Below the pieces are notes generated by a model. It was given only the letters and a program-made list of their open reading frames with translations, had not been told where the DNA came from and did no database searches. A program made the position numbers and the translations under genes. A DNA stretch of 50,904 nucleotides from an uncultured Clostridiaceae bacterium (lineage in GTDB: Bacteria > Bacillota > Clostridia > TANB77 > CAG-465): positions 1-50,904 of the forward strand of contig CAZXLZ010000001.1 in assembly GCA_964642045.1 (NCBI GenBank), given 5' to 3'. This document shows, piece by piece, positions 3,339 through 38,694 of this stretch (its first letter is position 1; every line of letters begins with the position of its first letter).

Positions 3339-3535
3339 AAAAAATTCCTCCTTAAATTTACAATTTTATTATAACATTTATTTTTTCATGTTCAATACTT
3401 TTATTTAATTTTTGTCATTTTATTATATTTATTTGCAGATTTAATACACTTTATGAAATATTTTTGTAACAAATTTAATTTTGTATATTATTTTTTATTG
3501 ATTTTGTATATTACATTGGTTATAATACTTTTGAG

Positions 3536-4040
3536 GTGATATATATTAAAAAGTTTTTTATTTCTTTTATTTTTATAATTTTTATCTTAATTTTATTTTT
3601 TTCTGAAAATAATTTAGATTCTAATTTCCACTTTCCCACTGATTATTATAACTATATATCTTCATATTTTGGAAGTAGACAGTTATTTGGAAGCTCTAAT
3701 TTTCATACAGGAGTAGATTTTTTAGCTCCACAAGGCACTGAAGTTAGGGCATGTAATTCTGGGTATGTTAAGTATGCAAGTTTCTTAAATGGATATGGCA
3801 ACTGTATCATTTTACTTCATGATAATGGTTATAGGTCACTATACGCACATCTTAGTGAAAACTTTATTGTAAATGTTCGGAGACTTTGTTAGTACTGATC
3901 AGATTATATCCTATGTTGGCCCATACATGCTTTCAAATGGAGTTATAAATGGAAATACAACAGGACCTCATTTACATTTTGAACTGTATAATGAAAAAGG
4001 AGACCTTATCGATCCCCTTTCTATTAATTATTCACAGTAG
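3536..4040 (+). CDS. M23 family metallopeptidase, interrupted by a one-base frameshift at CGG 3878-3880
   Basis: The N-terminal part has HTGVDFLAPQGTEVRACNSGYV...LYAHLSENFIVNV. The +1 frame continues GDFVSTDQIISYVGP...TGPHLHFELY to TAG at 4038-4040. The join restores the M23 consensus V-G-D-x-V...GPHLHFE. Confidence 0.75.
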
Positions 4041-10481: not shown

Positions 10482-11627
10482 TTAATCAATATATATAATA
10501 TCAAGTAAATTAGCTAAGCATCTTGATGCTCTATATGCCTCATCTAAGGTATTACCTGTAGAACCTATCTCAATTAAAATAGACATATTATTTAAGTCCT
10601 GGTTATATATAGAGTTACGTATAATCATAGGTCTAAAAAGTCCCGGATATACCTTTTCTGCAAGGAGCATCATCTTTAATGCTAAATTCAAATTTTCATC
10701 ATAGTATTCATTTCTTGTTCCATCATATCCAACACCTATAATGAGCATACACTGTGCAACCTCTACACCGCCTATAACGCATTTTGGCGCAAAACTTAAA
10801 TCCTCAATTGCATCTCTATGTAAATCAATAGATATTCCAAACTCACCATACTTTTCTTTATTTGCAAGAATAGATGCGCCAGAACTTCCATATGACATGG
10901 TATACGAACCATAATCATGCCCTGTTTTATCCTGAATTATAGTTATATTCCTTTCTTTTATAAATTTAGTAAATCTACTTGCAACACTTATCATGTTATA
11001 ATTTTCATCTGTCGTTCTATACGTTCCCGTATATGAGAAATTAAACATTTCACTGCAAGAATAAGTTTCTGATGCATGCGTATCATATACAAATATTTTA
11101 TCATTAGATTTAGTAAGTGTAATATTTTTGTTCATTATATCTGTATAAGGAATATTTGGAAGATCTGAAAAATCTTTTATTAGTATAGTAGAAGAAATAT
11201 TTACAGCTTCATACCCTGGACCTTGTGAGATAACATATCCTACATTAGTTAAAGAATTTAGATAATTTCTAGCCTCTGCTTTATCAATATTATCTATAAG
11301 TCCATAATTTACATTATCTATTATAACTTCTTCTGGTTCTTCTTTAATTTGGGCTATTTCATCATTATTTACTTCAGCTACTATATAATTTTTTTCATTA
11401 AATACAGGATATATGTTTCTTACTATTTCTACCGCACTTGGCATTATATCTATATTTTGAAGACTATTACTTAAATAAAATATATTTTTATATATACTAC
11501 TATTTTCAAAAGTGTACATTAAAAGTATAGCAAGAATAATAAGCAAAATTATTTTTTCTACATACTTTATTATTCCATCTTTATTCTTTAGTAGATTACT
11601 TTTCATTTTATCAAAAAAAACAGTCAT
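10482..11627 (-). CDS. spoIIP: Stage II sporulation protein P
   Basis: N-terminal TM, IFVYDTHASETYS and IDLHRDA motifs, and a C-terminal amidase-like region typical of SpoIIP. Confidence 0.8.
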   Translation of the reverse strand: MTVFFDKMKSNLLKNKDGIIKYVEKIILLIILAILLMYTFENSSIYKNIFYLSNSLQNIDIMPSAVEIVRNIYPVFNEKNYIVAEVNNDEIAQIKEEPEEVIIDNVNYGLIDNIDKAEARNYLNSLTNVGYVISQGPGYEAVNISSTILIKDFSDLPNIPYTDIMNKNITLTKSNDKIFVYDTHASETYSCSEMFNFSYTGTYRTTDENYNMISVASRFTKFIKERNITIIQDKTGHDYGSYTMSYGSSGASILANKEKYGEFGISIDLHRDAIEDLSFAPKCVIGGVEVAQCMLIIGVGYDGTRNEYYDENLNLALKMMLLAEKVYPGLFRPMIIRNSIYNQDLNNMSILIEIGSTGNTLDEAYRASRCLANLLDIIYID

Positions 11628-11683: not shown

Positions 11684-12100
11684 CTATAAAATGTTATCTA
11701 TTTCTTTTGCGTACTTGTCCATAAGCTTTACTGCTCTTTCTTTTAAATCTACAACCTCTTTTTTTATATCAAGCAATTTTTCTTTTTCTAATTCTATCAA
11801 ATGCTCAATTCTAGCTTTTTCTTCATTTGCTTCAATTCTTGCAGATTCTATTATCTTTTTAGATTGGTCTTCTGCAGTAATTAAAGCATTAGCTACTTTT
11901 TCTTGTCTTTGGATATAGTCTGCTTCAAATCTTTCTATTTTTTTCTTAACTATTGTAAGTTCATTAGATAATCTATTAGAGTCTGACCTTTCAACCTGAA
12001 GTTTTGTTTCATATTCAGATTTTAGTTCTTTTATATAGTCATCCACCTCTGATTTATTATAGCCAAACATCTCGTTTGAAAATTTCTTGTCTAAATCCAT
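11684..12100 (-). CDS. DivIVA domain-containing protein
   Basis: MDLDKKFSNEMFGYNKSEVDDYIKEL is a DivIVA N-terminal motif, followed by coiled coil. The start is set at the ATG preceded by GGAGGGG. Confidence 0.7.
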   Translation of the reverse strand: MDLDKKFSNEMFGYNKSEVDDYIKELKSEYETKLQVERSDSNRLSNELTIVKKKIERFEADYIQRQEKVANALITAEDQSKKIIESARIEANEEKARIEHLIELEKEKLLDIKKEVVDLKERAVKLMDKYAKEIDNIL

Positions 12101-12355
12101 CTTTAATACCCCTCCAAGATTTTCAAATCTAATTGTACAATATTTGGTTCGAATTTTCAAGTTATTTTAAAAATTTATAACTGCAAATAAAAAATATAAC
12201 ACATGTAATTAATAAAATTTAATAATTTGTAACATAAAAAAATCTAATATTGTTTAATATAAAAACATATTAAGATATATTCTTATTTTAATTTAATATC
12301 AAAAAGCACCAATTTTACTAGATGATAATTTATTTCATTTTCTTAAGCAATATAT

Positions 12356-12384
12356 TTCTTAATCTGACATTCATATGCTATAAT
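12356..12384 (+). promoter_or_regulatory. Extended -10 promoter of the small-peptide (toxin-like) gene
   Basis: TGcTATAAT at 12376-12384. The -35 at 12356-12361 (TTCTTA) is weak. Confidence 0.45.
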
Positions 12385-12425
12385 CAAAATATCCTTTCTA
12401 AGGATAGAAAGGAGGGTAACGTAAA

Positions 12426-12515
12426 ATGTATTTACTTATACAAATTGTGAATGTGATAGCACAAATTATAAATGCAATCTGCAATTTATATAATACTACT
12501 CACAAACACAACTAA
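12426..12515 (+). CDS. 29-aa hydrophobic peptide, type I toxin candidate
   Basis: ATG 12426 lies 10 nt after AGAAAGGAGG. The peptide is MYLLIQIVNVIAQIINAICNLYNTTHKHN, with a hydrophobic N-terminus and a polar, basic tail. The SD is half buried in a perfect 9-bp 5' hairpin (12392-12400 / 12405-12413). An intrinsic terminator follows directly. Confidence 0.45.
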   Translation: MYLLIQIVNVIAQIINAICNLYNTTHKHN

Positions 12516-12519
12516 GCTA

Positions 12520-12550
12520 TTAGCATGAGTTCCAGCTCATGCTAATTTTA
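12520..12550 (+). terminator. Intrinsic terminator of the peptide mRNA
   Basis: TTAGCATGAG-TTCCAG-CTCATGCTAA followed by TTTTATTTTATT. Confidence 0.75.
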
Positions 12551-12574
12551 TTTTATTCCATTTTTATGATTTTA

Positions 12575-12727
12575 TTCAAAAATTGAGAAGATAGTTCCAG
12601 CTATCTCCTCGTAACGTATTTGTATTTACTTTTTCCTTCCCTAACCTTCAGAAAGGAGGTGATCAATATGGTTAGACCAATTATTTTTCACCATTGTGCA
12701 TCAAGATTATATAATAATCTAAATACA
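12575..12727 (-). ncRNA. Convergent ~150-nt sRNA, antitoxin candidate, carrying a 16S 3'-tail mimic
   Basis: It is bounded by a consensus minus-strand promoter (12734-12762) and a minus-strand terminator. The terminator is GAGGAGATAG-CUGGAA-CUAUCUUCUC plus AAUUUUUG (12585-12610); it forms a G-U pair on this strand but an A-C mismatch on the other. There is no ORF with an RBS. It contains GATCACCTCCTTTCT and AAGTAAATACAAATACGTTAC, complementary to the peptide SD and start region. Confidence 0.55.
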
Positions 12728-12733
12728 TCAATA

Positions 12734-12762
12734 ATTATAACATTTTATAAATAACTTGTCAA
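12734..12762 (-). promoter_or_regulatory. Consensus sigma-A promoter of the sRNA
   Basis: Minus strand reads TTGACA (12762-12757), 17 nt, TGtTATAAT (-10 at 12739-12734). Confidence 0.7.
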
Positions 12763-12838
12763 CATTGTATATAGAAGTTTATAGCAATAATTTTATATTC
12801 AGATACTGTACATTCATTTAATATTATTTATTATATTT

Positions 12839-13429
12839 TTAAACTATAATTCTAAAAAATACCTGTTCTATACATAAACTAAGCATTATAAATGGTATGG
12901 TCATGATAGCATATATAAGCATCTTAAAAAGTATTCGTATAACTCCATTTAAATTTAACTTCATTAATAGCTCATCTGAACTTTTTAAGCACTCTACCGA
13001 AAGAACTATATATATAAGAATCAATATAAAATTAGGTAAAATCGCAACAGAAATACTACTAAGTATACCTTTTAACGGTCCAAACACACTAAATAAAATG
13101 CAGATATACATAGATAAAGATATACCTTTAAATAAAATAACTGCTGAGACTATTCCAAAAGATATTACTGTAAAAGATGCAAATATAAATACTGCTATTA
13201 GGCAAGAATTTATTTGCATTCCATTTTTTATAATATTAATCCCTGTAAAACCTTCTACACTTGCTATATCAACAGTATTTTTTACCGAGTTTATAAGCTG
13301 TAATTTATTTTCCCCGCCTAAAAATCCAAATATAACAAAACCAATAATTATTCCTAAGATATAAATAATCACAAAGAGTGTTAAGTTTTTTAGATTATAT
13401 AATATATATTTTTTCACTTGTTCTTTCAA
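12839..13429 (-). CDS. spoIIM: Stage II sporulation protein M
   Basis: 196-aa polytopic protein. LFKGISLS and AILPNFILILIYIV are colinear with B. subtilis SpoIIM FLKGVVVGF and VLPQNLFIVPAYII, as recalled from memory. Confidence 0.65.
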   Translation of the reverse strand: MKEQVKKYILYNLKNLTLFVIIYILGIIIGFVIFGFLGGENKLQLINSVKNTVDIASVEGFTGINIIKNGMQINSCLIAVFIFASFTVISFGIVSAVILFKGISLSMYICILFSVFGPLKGILSSISVAILPNFILILIYIVLSVECLKSSDELLMKLNLNGVIRILFKMLIYAIMTIPFIMLSLCIEQVFFRIIV

Positions 13430-13474: not shown

Positions 13475-13939
13475 TTACAAGTTTTTAATTGCTCCTACTG
13501 CTAGTCTATCACATCTATTGTTATATTCATTATCTGCGTGCCCCTTTACTTTTATAAACTTTACATCATGAATAGACATGCATTTTAATAATCTTTCCCA
13601 AAGTTCAACATTTTTAACTGGTGATTTATCAGATTTAACCCAGTTTTTCTTTTTCCAGCCAAATACCCAGCCTTTTTCCACACTATCCACAACATACGTA
13701 CTATCACTGTATACTGTAACTTCACATGGATATTTTAAATGTTCTAGTCCCATTATTACAGCCATCATTTCCATTTTATTATTAGTAGTATTTTTATCAG
13801 CTCCAACAATCTCTTTTTCATTCCCATCACACATTAAAATTGCTGCATATCCACCTGGACCAGGATTACCACTACATGCACCATCTGTATACATAGTTAC
13901 TTTTTTCTTCTCATCTGAAATCATATTTTTCTCCTTCAC
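13475..13939 (-). CDS. rnhA: Ribonuclease HI
   Basis: YTDGACSGNPGPGGYAAIL, NNKMEMMAV, DSTYV and KGHADNEYNNRCDRLA. Confidence 0.85.
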   Translation of the reverse strand: MKEKNMISDEKKKVTMYTDGACSGNPGPGGYAAILMCDGNEKEIVGADKNTTNNKMEMMAVIMGLEHLKYPCEVTVYSDSTYVVDSVEKGWVFGWKKKNWVKSDKSPVKNVELWERLLKCMSIHDVKFIKVKGHADNEYNNRCDRLAVGAIKNL

Positions 13940-17575: not shown

Positions 17576-17604
17576 TTGACATAATATGTTTTTTATGCTA
17601 TAAT
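17576..17604 (+). promoter_or_regulatory. Consensus promoter of cassette 1
   Basis: TTGACA (17576-17581), 17 nt, TGcTATAAT (-10 at 17599-17604). Confidence 0.7.
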
Positions 17605-17628
17605 ATTAGTTAAGTATTAATAATTTTA

Positions 17629-17672
17629 AATACGCATCAGTATGCATATTGTTTGTGTGCAATTGCGTATAA
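17629..17672 (+). promoter_or_regulatory. Conserved leader element, copy 1
   Basis: AATACGCATCAGTATG (17629-17644) is identical to 18041-18056. TGCGTATAA (17664-17672) is identical to 18079-18087. ATACGCAT-CAGT-ATGCATAT can form a local hairpin, or ATACGCA can pair with the distal TGCGTAT. Confidence 0.5.
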
Positions 17673-17695
17673 TAATTTTTGAAAGGAAAAGAAAA

Positions 17696-17908
17696 ATGAA
17701 AAAAATAATTACTTTTTTAGTATTGGCCATTCTCGCTTCAGTTCTGCTCACAGGATGCGAGCAAAACAAAGAAATTACGTTCAAGGAAAGCGATGAATCT
17801 TCATCCTGTCTTATAAAAGACAGATATGGAGAAAACAAGCCTGTTCCCATAAAAAATGGGGGCGCTATTGAAATTGACGACAATACAGTCGTCATTGACC
17901 TTGGCTAA
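17696..17908 (+). CDS. Small lipoprotein (70 aa)
   Basis: MKKIITFLVLAILASVLLTGC has a signal peptide and lipobox. G+C is visibly higher than in flanking DNA. Confidence 0.7.
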   Translation: MKKIITFLVLAILASVLLTGCEQNKEITFKESDESSSCLIKDRYGENKPVPIKNGGAIEIDDNTVVIDLG

Positions 17909-17912
17909 TTTT

Positions 17913-17945
17913 ATCCCACTTCTTTAATTAGAAGTGGGATTTTTA
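17913..17945 (+). terminator. Intrinsic terminator of cassette 1
   Basis: ATCCCACTTC-TTTAATTA-GAAGTGGGAT followed by TTTTT. Confidence 0.8.
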
Positions 17946-17988
17946 TTTATCATATATTTAAAAAATCACATTTTTATTTACATAATTA

Positions 17989-18018
17989 TTGACATTTTAC
18001 ATAATATTATGTTATAAT
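17989..18018 (+). promoter_or_regulatory. Consensus promoter of cassette 2
   Basis: TTGACA (17989-17994), 18 nt, TGtTATAAT (-10 at 18013-18018). Confidence 0.7.
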
Positions 18019-18040
18019 ATATATGTATTACCATATAACT

Positions 18041-18087
18041 AATACGCATCAGTATGTGTATTTTTAGTTTAATGCTAATGCGTATAA
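18041..18087 (+). promoter_or_regulatory. Conserved leader element, copy 2
   Basis: It has the same 16-nt and 9-nt blocks as copy 1. The local hairpin ATACGCAT-CAGT-ATGTGTAT is fully paired with one G-U. Confidence 0.5.
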
Positions 18088-18118
18088 AAATAAAAACTAT
18101 GTATAAATGGAGGTACTT

Positions 18119-18727
18119 ATGAACAACAAAGCTTCATATCTTGGATGGATAGTGGCAGTTATACTTGCTGCTATATTGGCAATTATGGTGTATATGCAGT
18201 ATTTTGGTGGACACACTATTGTCTGCAACTGCATGCAAAACAATCAAGATCAACTTCAGCAAAATCCTGCTCCTGCCCCTACTCCTACCACGACCACTAC
18301 CACGATCAAAGAGCTGCCTGATAAGGCATATAAGGAGATGAAGCAAAGTAGCATCTCCTATGAATGGAAAAATTCAAAAACGCTCGAAATTCGTTTTGAG
18401 CAGTATAAGAATCTTTCCACTGCTGATGGAAAAGATGTGGTATTCTTTCCAAATGAAGCTGAATACCAAAAGTTTATCAAGGACGTGAAAGACAATCCCG
18501 AGCTGTACAAGGAGTCTGATCCTGGTTATTACAGCAATACTCGGATTGTAAACTTGCTTGATGGAAAATTTCCAGAAATAGCCAGCTGGCAAATCCCATC
18601 TGGCAGCAATGTTCTCCTTATCACATTTAAGGAAGAACCAAGCGAGATCTTTTCATTGAAAAGTGCAACAGGCTACTGGCAAGGTCTTCACATTTACCTT
18701 GAGGAGGAGACCCAAGTAACCGAATAA
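18119..18727 (+). CDS. Membrane-anchored extracytoplasmic protein with Pro/Thr linker
   Basis: The ATG at 18119 is 7 nt after GGAGG. An N-terminal TM is followed by a NPAPAPTPTTTTTT linker and a roughly 130-aa unknown domain. A hand count of line 18241-18300 gives 30 of 60 G+C, against 18 of 60 in line 18781-18840. Confidence 0.7.
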   Translation: MNNKASYLGWIVAVILAAILAIMVYMQYFGGHTIVCNCMQNNQDQLQQNPAPAPTPTTTTTTIKELPDKAYKEMKQSSISYEWKNSKTLEIRFEQYKNLSTADGKDVVFFPNEAEYQKFIKDVKDNPELYKESDPGYYSNTRIVNLLDGKFPEIASWQIPSGSNVLLITFKEEPSEIFSLKSATGYWQGLHIYLEEETQVTE

Positions 18728-37239: not shown

Positions 37240-38694
37240 TTACATTATTCCATATTTTCTCTTACAAGATTTTAAGTTTTTATTCATTATCTTTTCCCAT
37301 ATCTTATATTCTTGCATATCCTGATTAACAATTTCAATATGGTATGTATCTTCTGAAAGCTTTATTATTCTAACTATATCATTCTCTTCATAAGCAATAT
37401 TTTCCAAATTTTTGCAAAGTATAGATATAAATGTTTGACCTTTTCTTTGGAACATCTTAGATGAGTTTTCTATATACTTCTTATTTTCCTTACAATCTAT
37501 AATCTCAATATGTATATCTCTTTCTTTTGTTATAACTCCTGCCTCATCTACTACTTTTGCTTTATCTGGGAATTCAAAGAATGCTGGTATTAAATCTCTT
37601 ATATAGTTAGGTATTTTTATAATATCTAAATCCTTTTTATTTTGCTGTTTAGCTGGAAGCTGCATAATGAAGTTTGTTACATTATTTAAATCTACTTTCT
37701 TAACTTTAAGAAGCTCTACTTCATCATTAAAAGATTTTTCTCCACTGTCATCCATCTTTTCTTTATTTGCTTCTTTCTTTTTCTCCTTAAGTTTAACTGT
37801 AGATTTTGTAAATAACATATCATTTAAGTCTATTTCTTCATCTAAGTTAATATCATCATCTATCTCTTCTTCATCTATAACTTCATCTTCAAAGCCTTGA
37901 TCTACCTTATTTTCTACTTTTTCTTCTTTTTTGGATTTTTTCTTAGTTTTTTCTTCTTTAGCATCTGTCTTTATTACAGCTTCTGATACCATTGATACAT
38001 CAATATCAAAATCTGAAAAACTATCATCTAATTTTACTTCTGGCATTCCAAAATCAGAAGCTACTATATCTTCATCTGATTTTACATCCTTACTATCTTT
38101 TTTAGCTTCATCTTTTTTGCCCAAAAGTTCAGCTATTGACTTAACACTATGTTCATACTGTTTATTTGAAAAGATAATTTTGCTATCTATAAGATCTGAA
38201 ATATCAGATTTTTTAAGAAGAGTAAATTCTAAATCTTTTAAGCTAGATAACTGTTTTATTTTCTCTTTATATTCCCTTTTCTCTAAATCTGATTTTAAAT
38301 CATATTCAAACTTAGATATCATAACTAAGTCTTCTGTCATAGAATTTTCAGATATTTTTCCAGATGAGAAATATATAACAGCTCTCTTATCATTTTCAAA
38401 AACAATAGATGTTCCTTCAAATTCTTTTATTTCGTTATTGTTATAATAATATACTTCCTTTGAATAACTTAAAATACTTTCAAGTAAACTTTTGGTAGTA
38501 TTCTTTTTGTCTACTCCCATATACATTACAAGTTTAACAGATGTATCTATTATATTTTCTTCAATAATATTAAATCCTGATTCTTTTACAGTTCCCGCAT
38601 ATATATACATTTTTTTAGGATTAAGACTCATCTCATTTTCTATACATTTCTTTAAATTTAAATCTTCATTTTGCATGATAACATCTAGCTTCAT
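37240..38694 (-). CDS. Hypothetical protein with a possible inactive PLD-like N-domain, K/E/D-rich linker and B3/EcoRII-N-like C-domain
   Basis: 484-aa clean ORF. The domain guesses rest on pattern similarity only (see finding). Confidence 0.6.
   Translation of the reverse strand: MKLDVIMQNEDLNLKKCIENEMSLNPKKMYIYAGTVKESGFNIIEENIIDTSVKLVMYMGVDKKNTTKSLLESILSYSKEVYYYNNNEIKEFEGTSIVFENDKRAVIYFSSGKISENSMTEDLVMISKFEYDLKSDLEKREYKEKIKQLSSLKDLEFTLLKKSDISDLIDSKIIFSNKQYEHSVKSIAELLGKKDEAKKDSKDVKSDEDIVASDFGMPEVKLDDSFSDFDIDVSMVSEAVIKTDAKEEKTKKKSKKEEKVENKVDQGFEDEVIDEEEIDDDINLDEEIDLNDMLFTKSTVKLKEKKKEANKEKMDDSGEKSFNDEVELLKVKKVDLNNVTNFIMQLPAKQQNKKDLDIIKIPNYIRDLIPAFFEFPDKAKVVDEAGVITKERDIHIEIIDCKENKKYIENSSKMFQRKGQTFISILCKNLENIAYEENDIVRIIKLSEDTYHIEIVNQDMQEYKIWEKIMNKNLKSCKRKYGIM

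Follow-up and report, generated by a model that had tools for sequence, protein, structure and literature searches.

The locus and its predicted transcripts

The DNA analysed here (hereafter the window) is a stretch of 50,904 nucleotides with a G+C content of 28%, taken from contig CAZXLZ010000001.1 of an uncultured Clostridiaceae bacterium, and the element under study is a candidate type I toxin-antitoxin module in which the mRNA of a small peptide (RNA I, plus strand) would be silenced by a convergent small RNA (RNA II, minus strand). The candidate module, about 400 bp long, lies in a 740-nt gap between two genes of the minus strand, encoding a DivIVA-domain protein (11684-12100) and a weakly SpoIIM-like membrane protein (12839-13429, with its stop codon at 12839). 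The original prediction, made from the letters of the sequence, had described here an arrangement of the type known from the par locus of plasmid pAD1, in which the toxin is the peptide Fst, and all the features that it listed on the two strands were found at the positions it gave.

The predicted RNA I is about 166 nt long (12391-12556, plus strand; its ends are inferred from promoter and terminator) and would be transcribed from an extended -10 promoter read from the sequence, TATGcTATAAT (12374-12384, with TGcTATAAT at 12376-12384), whose TRTG/-16 motif we take to be that of Gram-positive promoters in general. The -35 element is poor (TTCTTA, 3/6 matches), hence the promoter is missed by a scan for two hexamers and, for want of a good -35, is predicted to be weaker than that of RNA II. 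The transcript folds with a minimum free energy (MFE) of -44.8 kcal/mol (z-score -5.9), and none of 200 shuffled sequences was as stable. Its 5' end carries a perfect 9-bp stem-loop (12392-12400 / 12405-12413, -10.4 kcal/mol), which begins 1-3 nt from the predicted 5' end and buries AGAAAGGA of the Shine-Dalgarno (SD) sequence, in agreement with the half-buried SD proposed originally; the SD itself, AGAAAGGAGG (12406-12415, plus strand), is placed 10 nt before the ATG and has a probability of being unpaired, P(unpaired), of 0.18. As to the upstream helix that sequesters the 5' end of par-type mRNAs, the MFE structure offers only weak A-U pairs joining 12416-12427 to the 3' U-tract, and these are missing from the centroid structure; in RNA I the 5' end is occupied by the 5' hairpin itself. 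Read on the minus strand, the 5' hairpin is a terminator-like site (12413-12392).

RNA I ends at terminator T1 (12519-12556, plus strand), whose stem (12519-12546) has 12 bp including the closing U.G pair, is capped by the apex AGUUCCAGCU and is followed by the U-tract TTTATTTTAT. With -15.2 kcal/mol and a z-score of -6.4 it is the strong plus-strand terminator with loop UUCCAG that had been expected, and it works in the plus direction only, since no T-run lies beyond the stem on the minus strand.

Between the SD and T1 lies the open reading frame (ORF) that had been pointed out, ORF1 (12426-12515, plus strand, ATG start), which encodes a candidate membrane-active peptide of 29 aa, MYLLIQIVNVIAQIINAICNLYNTTHKHN. 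In windows of 18 residues the mean Kyte-Doolittle hydropathy of the peptide reaches 1.88 and the hydrophobic moment is about 0.5; in fact, the glutamine and asparagine residues at positions 6, 9, 13, 16, and 20 form a polar stripe on one face of the helix. AlphaFold2 in single-sequence mode, with a query of 30 residues consisting of the upstream K and the peptide and with no alignment, returned one continuous helix over residues 2-29 with a pLDDT (predicted local distance difference test) of 87.8. In the same calculation the moment of the Fst helix is 0.07-0.3, and the ORF1 peptide resembles small pore-forming or membrane-perturbing peptides more closely than the plain transmembrane helix of Fst. 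It contains no P, G, or W and has the tail TTHKHN, hence it lacks the PXXXG motif, and the absence of an obvious Fst signature already remarked upon is confirmed.

Translation of ORF1 is made plausible by its ribosome-binding site, since the window has 23 sites where GGAGG is followed by a start codon at 4-11 nt, of which 17 are the starts of ORFs of at least 81 aa; in this genome the combination predicts real starts well. With fewer than 60 aa, a predicted hydrophobic membrane-helix peptide, and a ribosome-binding site, ORF1 fits what is generally expected of the small ORF in a type I system. A long imperfect inverted repeat (12445-12511) occupies most of the ORF.

On the opposite strand, the predicted RNA II (about 150 nt, 12576-12728) is the antitoxin candidate. 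Its promoter (12762-12734, minus strand) is the perfect TTGACA-17-TGtTATAAT of the original prediction, with 12/12 matches and an extended -10, and is one of only six 12/12 promoters in 50.9 kb. Of 24 TTGACA sites in the whole window, 6 are followed by TATAAT after 16-18 nt, where chance would give about 0.15, an enrichment of about 40-fold from which it follows that perfect promoter sites are overwhelmingly real in this window. Downstream of the promoter, all on the minus strand, are hairpin 1 (12727-12697), hairpin 2 (12692-12658), hairpin 3 (12657-12634), a single-stranded linker (12633-12611), and terminator T2 (12576-12610), in which a 10-bp stem (12610-12585) with loop CUGGAA is followed by AAUUUUUGAA. 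RNA II carries no ORF linked to a ribosome-binding site, so the sequence features agree with the predicted non-coding transcript of about 150 nt; in silico, it is an adjacent non-coding RNA gene with its own promoter and terminator.

The strand of RNA II is indicated by its fold. The region 12727-12576 has an MFE of -42.8 kcal/mol (z-score -5.5) on the minus strand and of -30.8 kcal/mol (z-score -2.9) when it is read on the plus strand; the minus-strand fold contains five G.U pairs, distributed over hairpin 1, hairpin 3, and the terminator, all of which become A-C mismatches on the plus strand, whereas the plus-strand fold has one G.U pair. In particular, hairpin 3 has -8.5 kcal/mol on the minus strand versus -2.0 on the plus strand, and T2 has -12.0 versus -9.4 kcal/mol, because the G.U pair 12607/12588 is turned into an A-C mismatch; the terminator stem, as claimed, pairs properly on the minus strand only, and T2 works in the minus direction only. 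This advantage of 12 kcal/mol for the minus strand, together with five G.U pairs against one, is good single-sequence evidence that the minus strand is the functional one.

Two further segments of RNA II are related to sequences elsewhere. Its predicted 5' end, AUGUAUUUA (12720-12728), is identical to the start region of ORF1 (12426-12434) as an inverted repeat and is consequently complementary to RNA II's own linker, of which it could act as a self-mask. The segment GAUCACCUCCUUUCU (12650-12664, minus strand), which exactly matches the tail at the 3' end of 16S rRNA in Firmicutes, contains the anti-SD copy of a repeat block described below (A') and is buried in hairpins 2 and 3, with a P(unpaired) of 0.14.

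Shared repeats and RNA-RNA pairing

The two transcript regions share direct repeats, and the G/C-containing blocks AGAAAGGAGG (block A, copy 1 of which is the SD of RNA I), GTAACGTA (block B), TGTATTTACTT (block C), and AGTTCCAGCT occur in two copies each in 50.9 kb, both at this locus. Blocks B and C, of 8 and 11 nt, span the start codon of ORF1 (12416-12437, plus strand) and are where RNA II is predicted to bind; in RNA II, their counterparts C' and B' (AAGUAAAUACAAAUACGUUAC, 12611-12631, minus strand) lie in the linker as an antisense element against the start-codon region of the toxin; the 10-nt block AGTTCCAGCT is the apex of T1 (12528-12537, unstranded) and is identical to the apex of T2 (12593-12602). 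Altogether five exact direct repeats of at least 8 nt, totalling 49 nt, connect the two regions, in comparison to a mean of 0.65 in dinucleotide shuffles, where P(>=4) is 0.003 and none of 3000 shuffles exceeded 36 nt in total.

The direct repeats described in the original prediction are therefore real, with one reservation about their layout: the SD block is not colinear with the others, since the order is A-B-C in one region and B-C-18 nt-A in the other. Likewise, of the statement that the blocks cover the SD and the start codon, the second half holds for B and C, whereas the SD block is buried in both RNAs.

A comparable density of repeats is reached elsewhere in the window by two repetitive coding regions only. 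These lie at about 37750-37900 and 48200-49400, within ORFs 37240-38694 and 47253-50348 (1031 aa), whose dense internal direct repeats suggest repetitive proteins.

The co-folding check that had been suggested was run on the two predicted transcripts, and all the intramolecular hairpins were kept in the joint structure. A single intermolecular helix was added, in which the AUG-containing segment 12416-12437 of RNA I (GUAACGUAAAAUGUAUUUACUU) pairs with the linker of RNA II (12631-12611). The gain of -18.1 kcal/mol is exceeded by none of 691 controls, consisting of 300 dinucleotide shuffles of RNA II (-4.6 +/- 2.3 kcal/mol, best -14.6) and 391 random 152-nt fragments of the window (-5.4 +/- 2.4 kcal/mol, best -13.8). 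The segments that pair are the accessible parts of both RNAs, with P(unpaired) values of 0.74 and 0.66 for the blocks of RNA II, 0.35-0.53 for those of RNA I, and 1.00 for the CUGGAA loop. The pairing expected of a type I antitoxin, beyond chance and at a site where translation or stability can be controlled, is thus predicted here over the start codon.

A second contact is possible between the terminators. The apices of T1 and T2 are identical over 10 nt and the stems beneath them are unrelated; as a consequence, the loops UUCCAG and CUGGAA are perfectly complementary, as had been noticed, and could form a kissing contact. The 6-nt loops alone give a duplex of -6.3 kcal/mol, and if the top two pairs of each stem open, so that the whole 10-nt apices can pair, the value is -17.1 kcal/mol. 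The confinement of identity to the apices points to selection for a loop-loop contact and not to a decaying duplication. In the loop sequences, a YUNR motif is present as CUGG in RNA II and none is found in the RNA I loop UUCCAG.

The predicted RNA I and RNA II converge without overlapping. A chance origin of the features of the locus was considered and is excluded by the promoter, repeat, and pairing statistics.

Genomic setting and known families

Beyond the two genes that flank the gap are the SpoIIP gene (10482-11627, Pfam E-value 1.7e-51) and the RNase H gene (13475-13939), both on the minus strand. The neighbour that had been called spoIIM does match TIGR02831 over its full length, with an E-value of 1e-4, but the score of 22 bits is far from the cut-off of 100 and no Pfam match was found, and the name is retained here only as SpoIIM-like. 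Between its stop codon (12839) and T2 there is no terminator, so the antitoxin sequence is probably also present in the 3' untranslated region (UTR) of this gene. A riboswitch or leader of a flanking gene was considered as well and is excluded, since the two neighbours are minus-strand genes whose ends or starts lie well beyond the element.

A search of 5.8 billion protein clusters with the SpoIIM-like protein turned up just three homologues, with 46-64% identity, which shows that the lineage is poorly sampled, and a scan of genome contigs with the same protein gave no match. Three proteins encoded beside the locus were also looked up by exact sequence, and none had an entry. The candidate type I module is absent at the loci of all three relatives, and it can be considered accessory, outside the conserved sporulation gene set. 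In one of them (L002) the order is RNase H, spoIIM-like gene, a 317-nt spacer, DivIVA gene, and spoIIP; in the other two a ParE-family type II toxin gene (Pfam PF05016) lies directly 3' of the spoIIM-like gene and convergent with it, at 3489-3767 on the minus strand in L001 (E-value 2e-5) and in the region 810-1197 on the minus strand in L003 (E-value 5e-11), where a partial upstream partner gene is also found. The occurrence of ParE genes at the equivalent position in two of three relatives indicates that the module occupies a variable slot for toxin-antitoxin cassettes, and is independent circumstantial support for the toxin-antitoxin reading.

Family searches gave no assignment. The comparison with Rfam antitoxin models, recommended by the original prediction, yielded no antitoxin match: three unrelated matches at chance level (E-value at least 5) were the only ones in 12100-12900 at E-values up to 10, and there was nothing at the gathering score in the whole window. 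Both the ORF1 peptide and the 28-aa product of a second small frame, ORF2, considered below, are without match in Pfam, including Pfam Fst, and in NCBIfam at E-values up to 10, and PHROGs returned for them nothing but one PHROG of unknown function with an E-value of 0.06. ORFs shorter than 30 aa are seldom called by gene finders, and protein databases are consequently nearly blind to such peptides; a phmmer search of 1.84 billion representatives with the translation of 30 residues had a single match, a spurious one to a tandem-repeat protein, the doubled peptide had no match in the word-indexed 5.8 billion clusters, and no similarity to Clostridioides difficile type I toxins emerged from these two collections.

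Searches were extended to unannotated DNA. A pattern combining GGAGG, ATG, and the hydropathy register at second codon positions had 0 matches in genome, viral, and metagenome contigs; when the SD was dropped from it, the pattern had at least 120 metagenome matches, all by chance and none with an SD or a similar peptide. A double AGTTCCAGCT pattern had 101 matches in viral contigs, which, being spaced in 3-nt steps and mostly lacking flanking stems, are read as coding tandem repeats, and a pattern of the 5' hairpin plus SD had four unrelated matches in viral contigs. Nothing meaningful was obtained by tblastn and blastn against plasmids and phages, and the suggested search for further copies of the module revealed no second copy in the window.

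The closest of the characterized systems is the par/Fst-RNA II type of pAD1 in Enterococcus faecalis and fst-Sm/srSm in Streptococcus mutans, with which the locus shares convergent promoters and an antitoxin 3' of the toxin, direct repeats of the DRa/DRb type that are transcribed in opposite directions and are complementary over the start codon (with the SD block permuted and buried here), a 5' stem-loop that sequesters the SD in the toxin mRNA, complementary terminator loops for a first kissing contact (here predicted), and a helical toxin peptide of about 30 aa. The lack of a terminator between the upstream gene and the antitoxin is shared with par_EF0409 (PMC7472228, PMC3543317), where read-through into RNA II has been noted (PMC7472228).

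The differences from par are equally clear. Par has one shared bidirectional terminator and overlapping 3' ends, in place of which there are here two one-directional terminators 38 nt apart; RNA II has about 150 nt and four hairpins instead of the about 40-70 nt usual for par-type antitoxins; the loop with the YUNR motif is that of the antitoxin here and that of the toxin (RNA I) there, although the motif is not universal in the family; and the SD repeat is permuted as well as buried. The hallmarks of Fst are a transmembrane domain with PXXXG, a conserved tryptophan, and a charged C-terminal tail (PMC7472228); the ORF1 peptide has none of these and no Pfam Fst match, and the locus has no Rfam match. 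The par architecture originally claimed thus stands, in silico, for its functional logic and fails as family membership, given the two private terminators and the missing Fst motif. Membership in the Fst family was considered and is excluded, owing to the lack of a shared bidirectional terminator, of PXXXG, and of Pfam, NCBIfam, or Rfam matches.

Among other systems, the peptide TisB is an amphipathic helix of 29 aa, like that of ORF1. TisB/IstR-1, Zor/Orz, and ShoB/OhsC of enterobacteria also have a neighbouring non-overlapping antitoxin with about 20 nt of complementarity (PMC8594479), but these pairs are divergent and Gram-negative, with the antitoxin 5' of the toxin and a standby site or 5' UTR as target, and they have no sequence similarity to the locus. 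SprA1/SprA1AS and SprA2/SprA2AS of Staphylococcus aureus are convergent, and the toxin is repressed not through the overlap but by an antitoxin segment outside it, which pairs imperfectly with the ribosome-binding site and start codon of the toxin (PMC6393315); in contrast to the present case, in which no overlap is predicted, their 3' ends overlap, the pairing domain is the 5' one and not a linker adjacent to the terminator, and their PepA toxins belong to the Fst family. In bsrG/SR4 of Bacillus subtilis the terminator loop of the antitoxin touches a loop of the toxin mRNA first and the toxin SD is in a helix, as proposed here (PMC3834814), but SR4 overlaps the 3' end of bsrG extensively and acts mainly by RNase III-dependent decay, and the toxin is unrelated.

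The modules of C. difficile (CD2517.1/RCd8 and others), the only experimentally validated type I systems in Clostridia, are convergent too (PMC6563280); they have long 3' overlaps, where none is predicted here, toxins of 34-53 aa with lysine-rich tails, and a linkage to prophages or CRISPR arrays. In the T1TAdb survey the antitoxin of every Gram-positive family is on the 3' side and overlaps with the toxin mRNA, and families without overlap are Gram-negative and have divergent genes (PMC8594479). Against this pattern, a convergent pair that has its antitoxin on the 3' side, does not overlap, and carries matched loops on private terminators would be a new arrangement, represented so far by a single sequence.

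Elsewhere in the window, the plus-strand region 17576-18106 contains a pair of perfect sigma-A promoters, both of the extended -10 type, at 17576 and at 17989; about 25 nt after each of them comes a common leader motif, AATACGCATCAGTATG...GCGTATAA (about 17631-17672 and 18042-18087). The promoter at 17576 leads to a 70-aa lipoprotein-like ORF (MKKIITFLVLAILASVLLTGC..., 17696-17908) with a terminator at 17913-17940, and the one at 17989 to a 206-aa ORF (18107-18727). The leader common to both may be an operator or a cis-acting RNA, and Rfam gave no match for it.

Interpretation and rival explanations

The functional reading, in which a convergent small RNA pairs with the translation-initiation region of a small peptide mRNA in the manner of par, has good support in silico. 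That the small RNA controls this small ORF, whether the peptide is toxic or harmless, is judged likely, and the locus on balance appears to be an orphan type I toxin-antitoxin module that works like par of pAD1 and is built differently.

In such a module the weak sigma-A promoter would produce a stable toxin mRNA of about 166 nt, whose 5'-terminal hairpin would hide the SD and keep translation shut, and the 29-aa amphipathic hydrophobic helix, if made, would insert into the membrane and damage it. The much stronger, perfect-consensus convergent promoter would supply an abundant non-coding RNA of about 150 nt, and the antitoxin sequence is probably also made as 3' UTR of the spoIIM-like gene. 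First contact would be a kiss between the terminator loops UUCCAG and CUGGAA, with the U-turn motif on the antitoxin side; the antitoxin linker, just upstream of its terminator, would then zip onto the 22-nt stretch with the toxin start codon, which would block ribosome loading and probably create a substrate for RNase III. In other words, the SD is predicted to be masked in cis by the 5' hairpin and the start codon in trans by RNA II. The order of the binding steps and the role of the RNase are suggested by analogy with par (PMC7472228), fst-Sm (PMC3543317), SprA2 (PMC6393315), and SR4 (PMC3834814).

Several observations weigh against a toxin-antitoxin module. The peptide is without a strongly charged C-terminal tail and is more amphipathic than the classical transmembrane type I toxins. 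Neither the peptide nor the module has a homologue in any collection searched, scans of unannotated DNA included, and no known toxin or antitoxin family is matched in Rfam, Pfam, or NCBIfam. The codon usage of ORF1 is atypical (-0.07 bits/codon, in the lowest 1% of 29-codon chunks from the window's long genes), although this test is non-discriminating, since ORF1 and ORF2 both look non-genic. Block A is paired inside hairpins of both RNAs (P(unpaired) 0.18 in RNA I and 0.01 in RNA II), is out of order relative to B and C, and is unused by the cofold, so that it may not pair at all and a direct masking of the SD by RNA II is doubtful. The U-tract of T2 begins 2 nt past the stem and termination may accordingly be leaky. 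The hairpin of ORF1 is more stable on the minus strand (-25.0 versus -15.3 kcal/mol, z-scores -4.5 versus -3.3), where it has four G.U pairs against 0 on the plus strand; this may reflect a G-poor plus strand or, alternatively, a leaky T2 may yield a structured full-length cis-antisense RNA ending at the hairpin 12413-12392. Finally, ORF2 (28 aa, 12668-12754, plus strand), which lies opposite RNA II and is of uncertain status, has a better ribosome-binding site than ORF1, with a perfect 15-nt SD, AGAAAGGAGGTGATC, at the ideal spacing of 8 nt from its ATG.

This last point is the core of the view that ORF2 is a real gene expressed by read-through of T1, the minus-strand RNA being mainly its cis-antisense and the complementarity to ORF1 being secondary or a remnant of duplication. 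We take AGAAAGGAGGTGATC to be perfectly complementary to the 16S rRNA tail over its 15 nt; it is followed by 28 open codons, and the combination of GGAGG and a start codon is spurious in only 4 of the 23 cases in the window. ORF1 and ORF2 also share an in-frame TTATATAATA, coding for LYN. Pairing with the SD of ORF1 accounts for 10 of the 15 nt, and any RNA that masks an SD necessarily looks like an SD on the opposite strand, but an antitoxin would leave the other nucleotides of the match without explanation. On the other hand, T1 is strong and the promoter scan found no plus-strand promoter between T1 and ORF2, the perfect antisense promoter is located inside ORF2, the fold of the region favours the minus strand by 12 kcal/mol, hairpin 3 and T2 having A-C mismatches on the plus strand, and the ORF2 peptide is non-hydrophobic with atypical codon usage; an ORF2 gene is therefore regarded as improbable. 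Equally small is the chance that there is no regulatory pair at all, the minus-strand hairpins being the 3' UTR or terminator of the spoIIM-like gene, ORF1 an untranslated accident, and the repeats debris of a local duplication. It would fit a T2 that serves the spoIIM-like gene, from whose stop codon no terminator separates it, as well as the variability of the spot among relatives, the codon usage of ORF1, which is not gene-like, and a function not backed by conservation, but perfect promoters such as the one found here, among six in the window, are enriched about 40-fold over chance, the repeat identity sits in loop apices and in start-codon and linker segments next to unrelated stems, unlike neutral decay, the stretches that are complementary are also those left accessible by both folds, and the interaction energy is outside all 691 controls.

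The RNA mechanism could also be the same and the peptide harmless, a small membrane or amphipathic peptide, for example SpoVM-like, tuned by the small RNA or by the 3' UTR of spoIIM. Antisense control of non-toxic small proteins is known, the peptide is amphipathic (moment about 0.5) and not plainly transmembrane, it has no charged tail and no toxin family match, and its neighbours (SpoIIP, the DivIVA-domain protein, and the SpoIIM-like protein) belong to a sporulation region. However, the promoter of ORF1 is of the sigma-A type and not of a sporulation-sigma type, as judged from the consensus sequences of general knowledge, and the absence of the module in 3/3 relatives, with a type II toxin at that site in two, fits an accessory addiction cassette better than a conserved sporulation factor. 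A 5' hairpin that hides the SD, combined with an antisense promoter that is strong and a sense promoter that is weak, is moreover the classic layout for silencing a toxin (PMC7472228), and a harmless peptide is considered unlikely, if less so than the two preceding explanations. A more elaborate version of the toxin-antitoxin module, in which a shared ancestral terminator has split into two with matched kissing loops, the antitoxin carries a perfect 15-nt copy of the 16S tail and is also made as 3' UTR of the spoIIM-like gene, and the silencing is thereby wired to sporulation, is speculative and has a low probability.

Type I toxins are tiny and evolve fast, and homology searches rarely detect such systems. 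If the locus is indeed a type I toxin-antitoxin module, it would represent a new clostridial system beyond those experimentally validated in C. difficile (PMC6563280) and a new toxin family recognised from RNA architecture alone, and the par logic of kissing terminator loops and start-codon repeat pairing would be able to work without a shared terminator. The type II ParE genes at the equivalent position in relatives point to a replaceable slot for addiction modules beside a sporulation gene, and the likely read-through from the spoIIM-like gene makes a link between the membrane peptide and sporulation possible; if the silencing were wired to sporulation in the way just described, the action of the peptide would be confined to cells or compartments in which the spoIIM-like (mother-cell sporulation) gene is not expressed.

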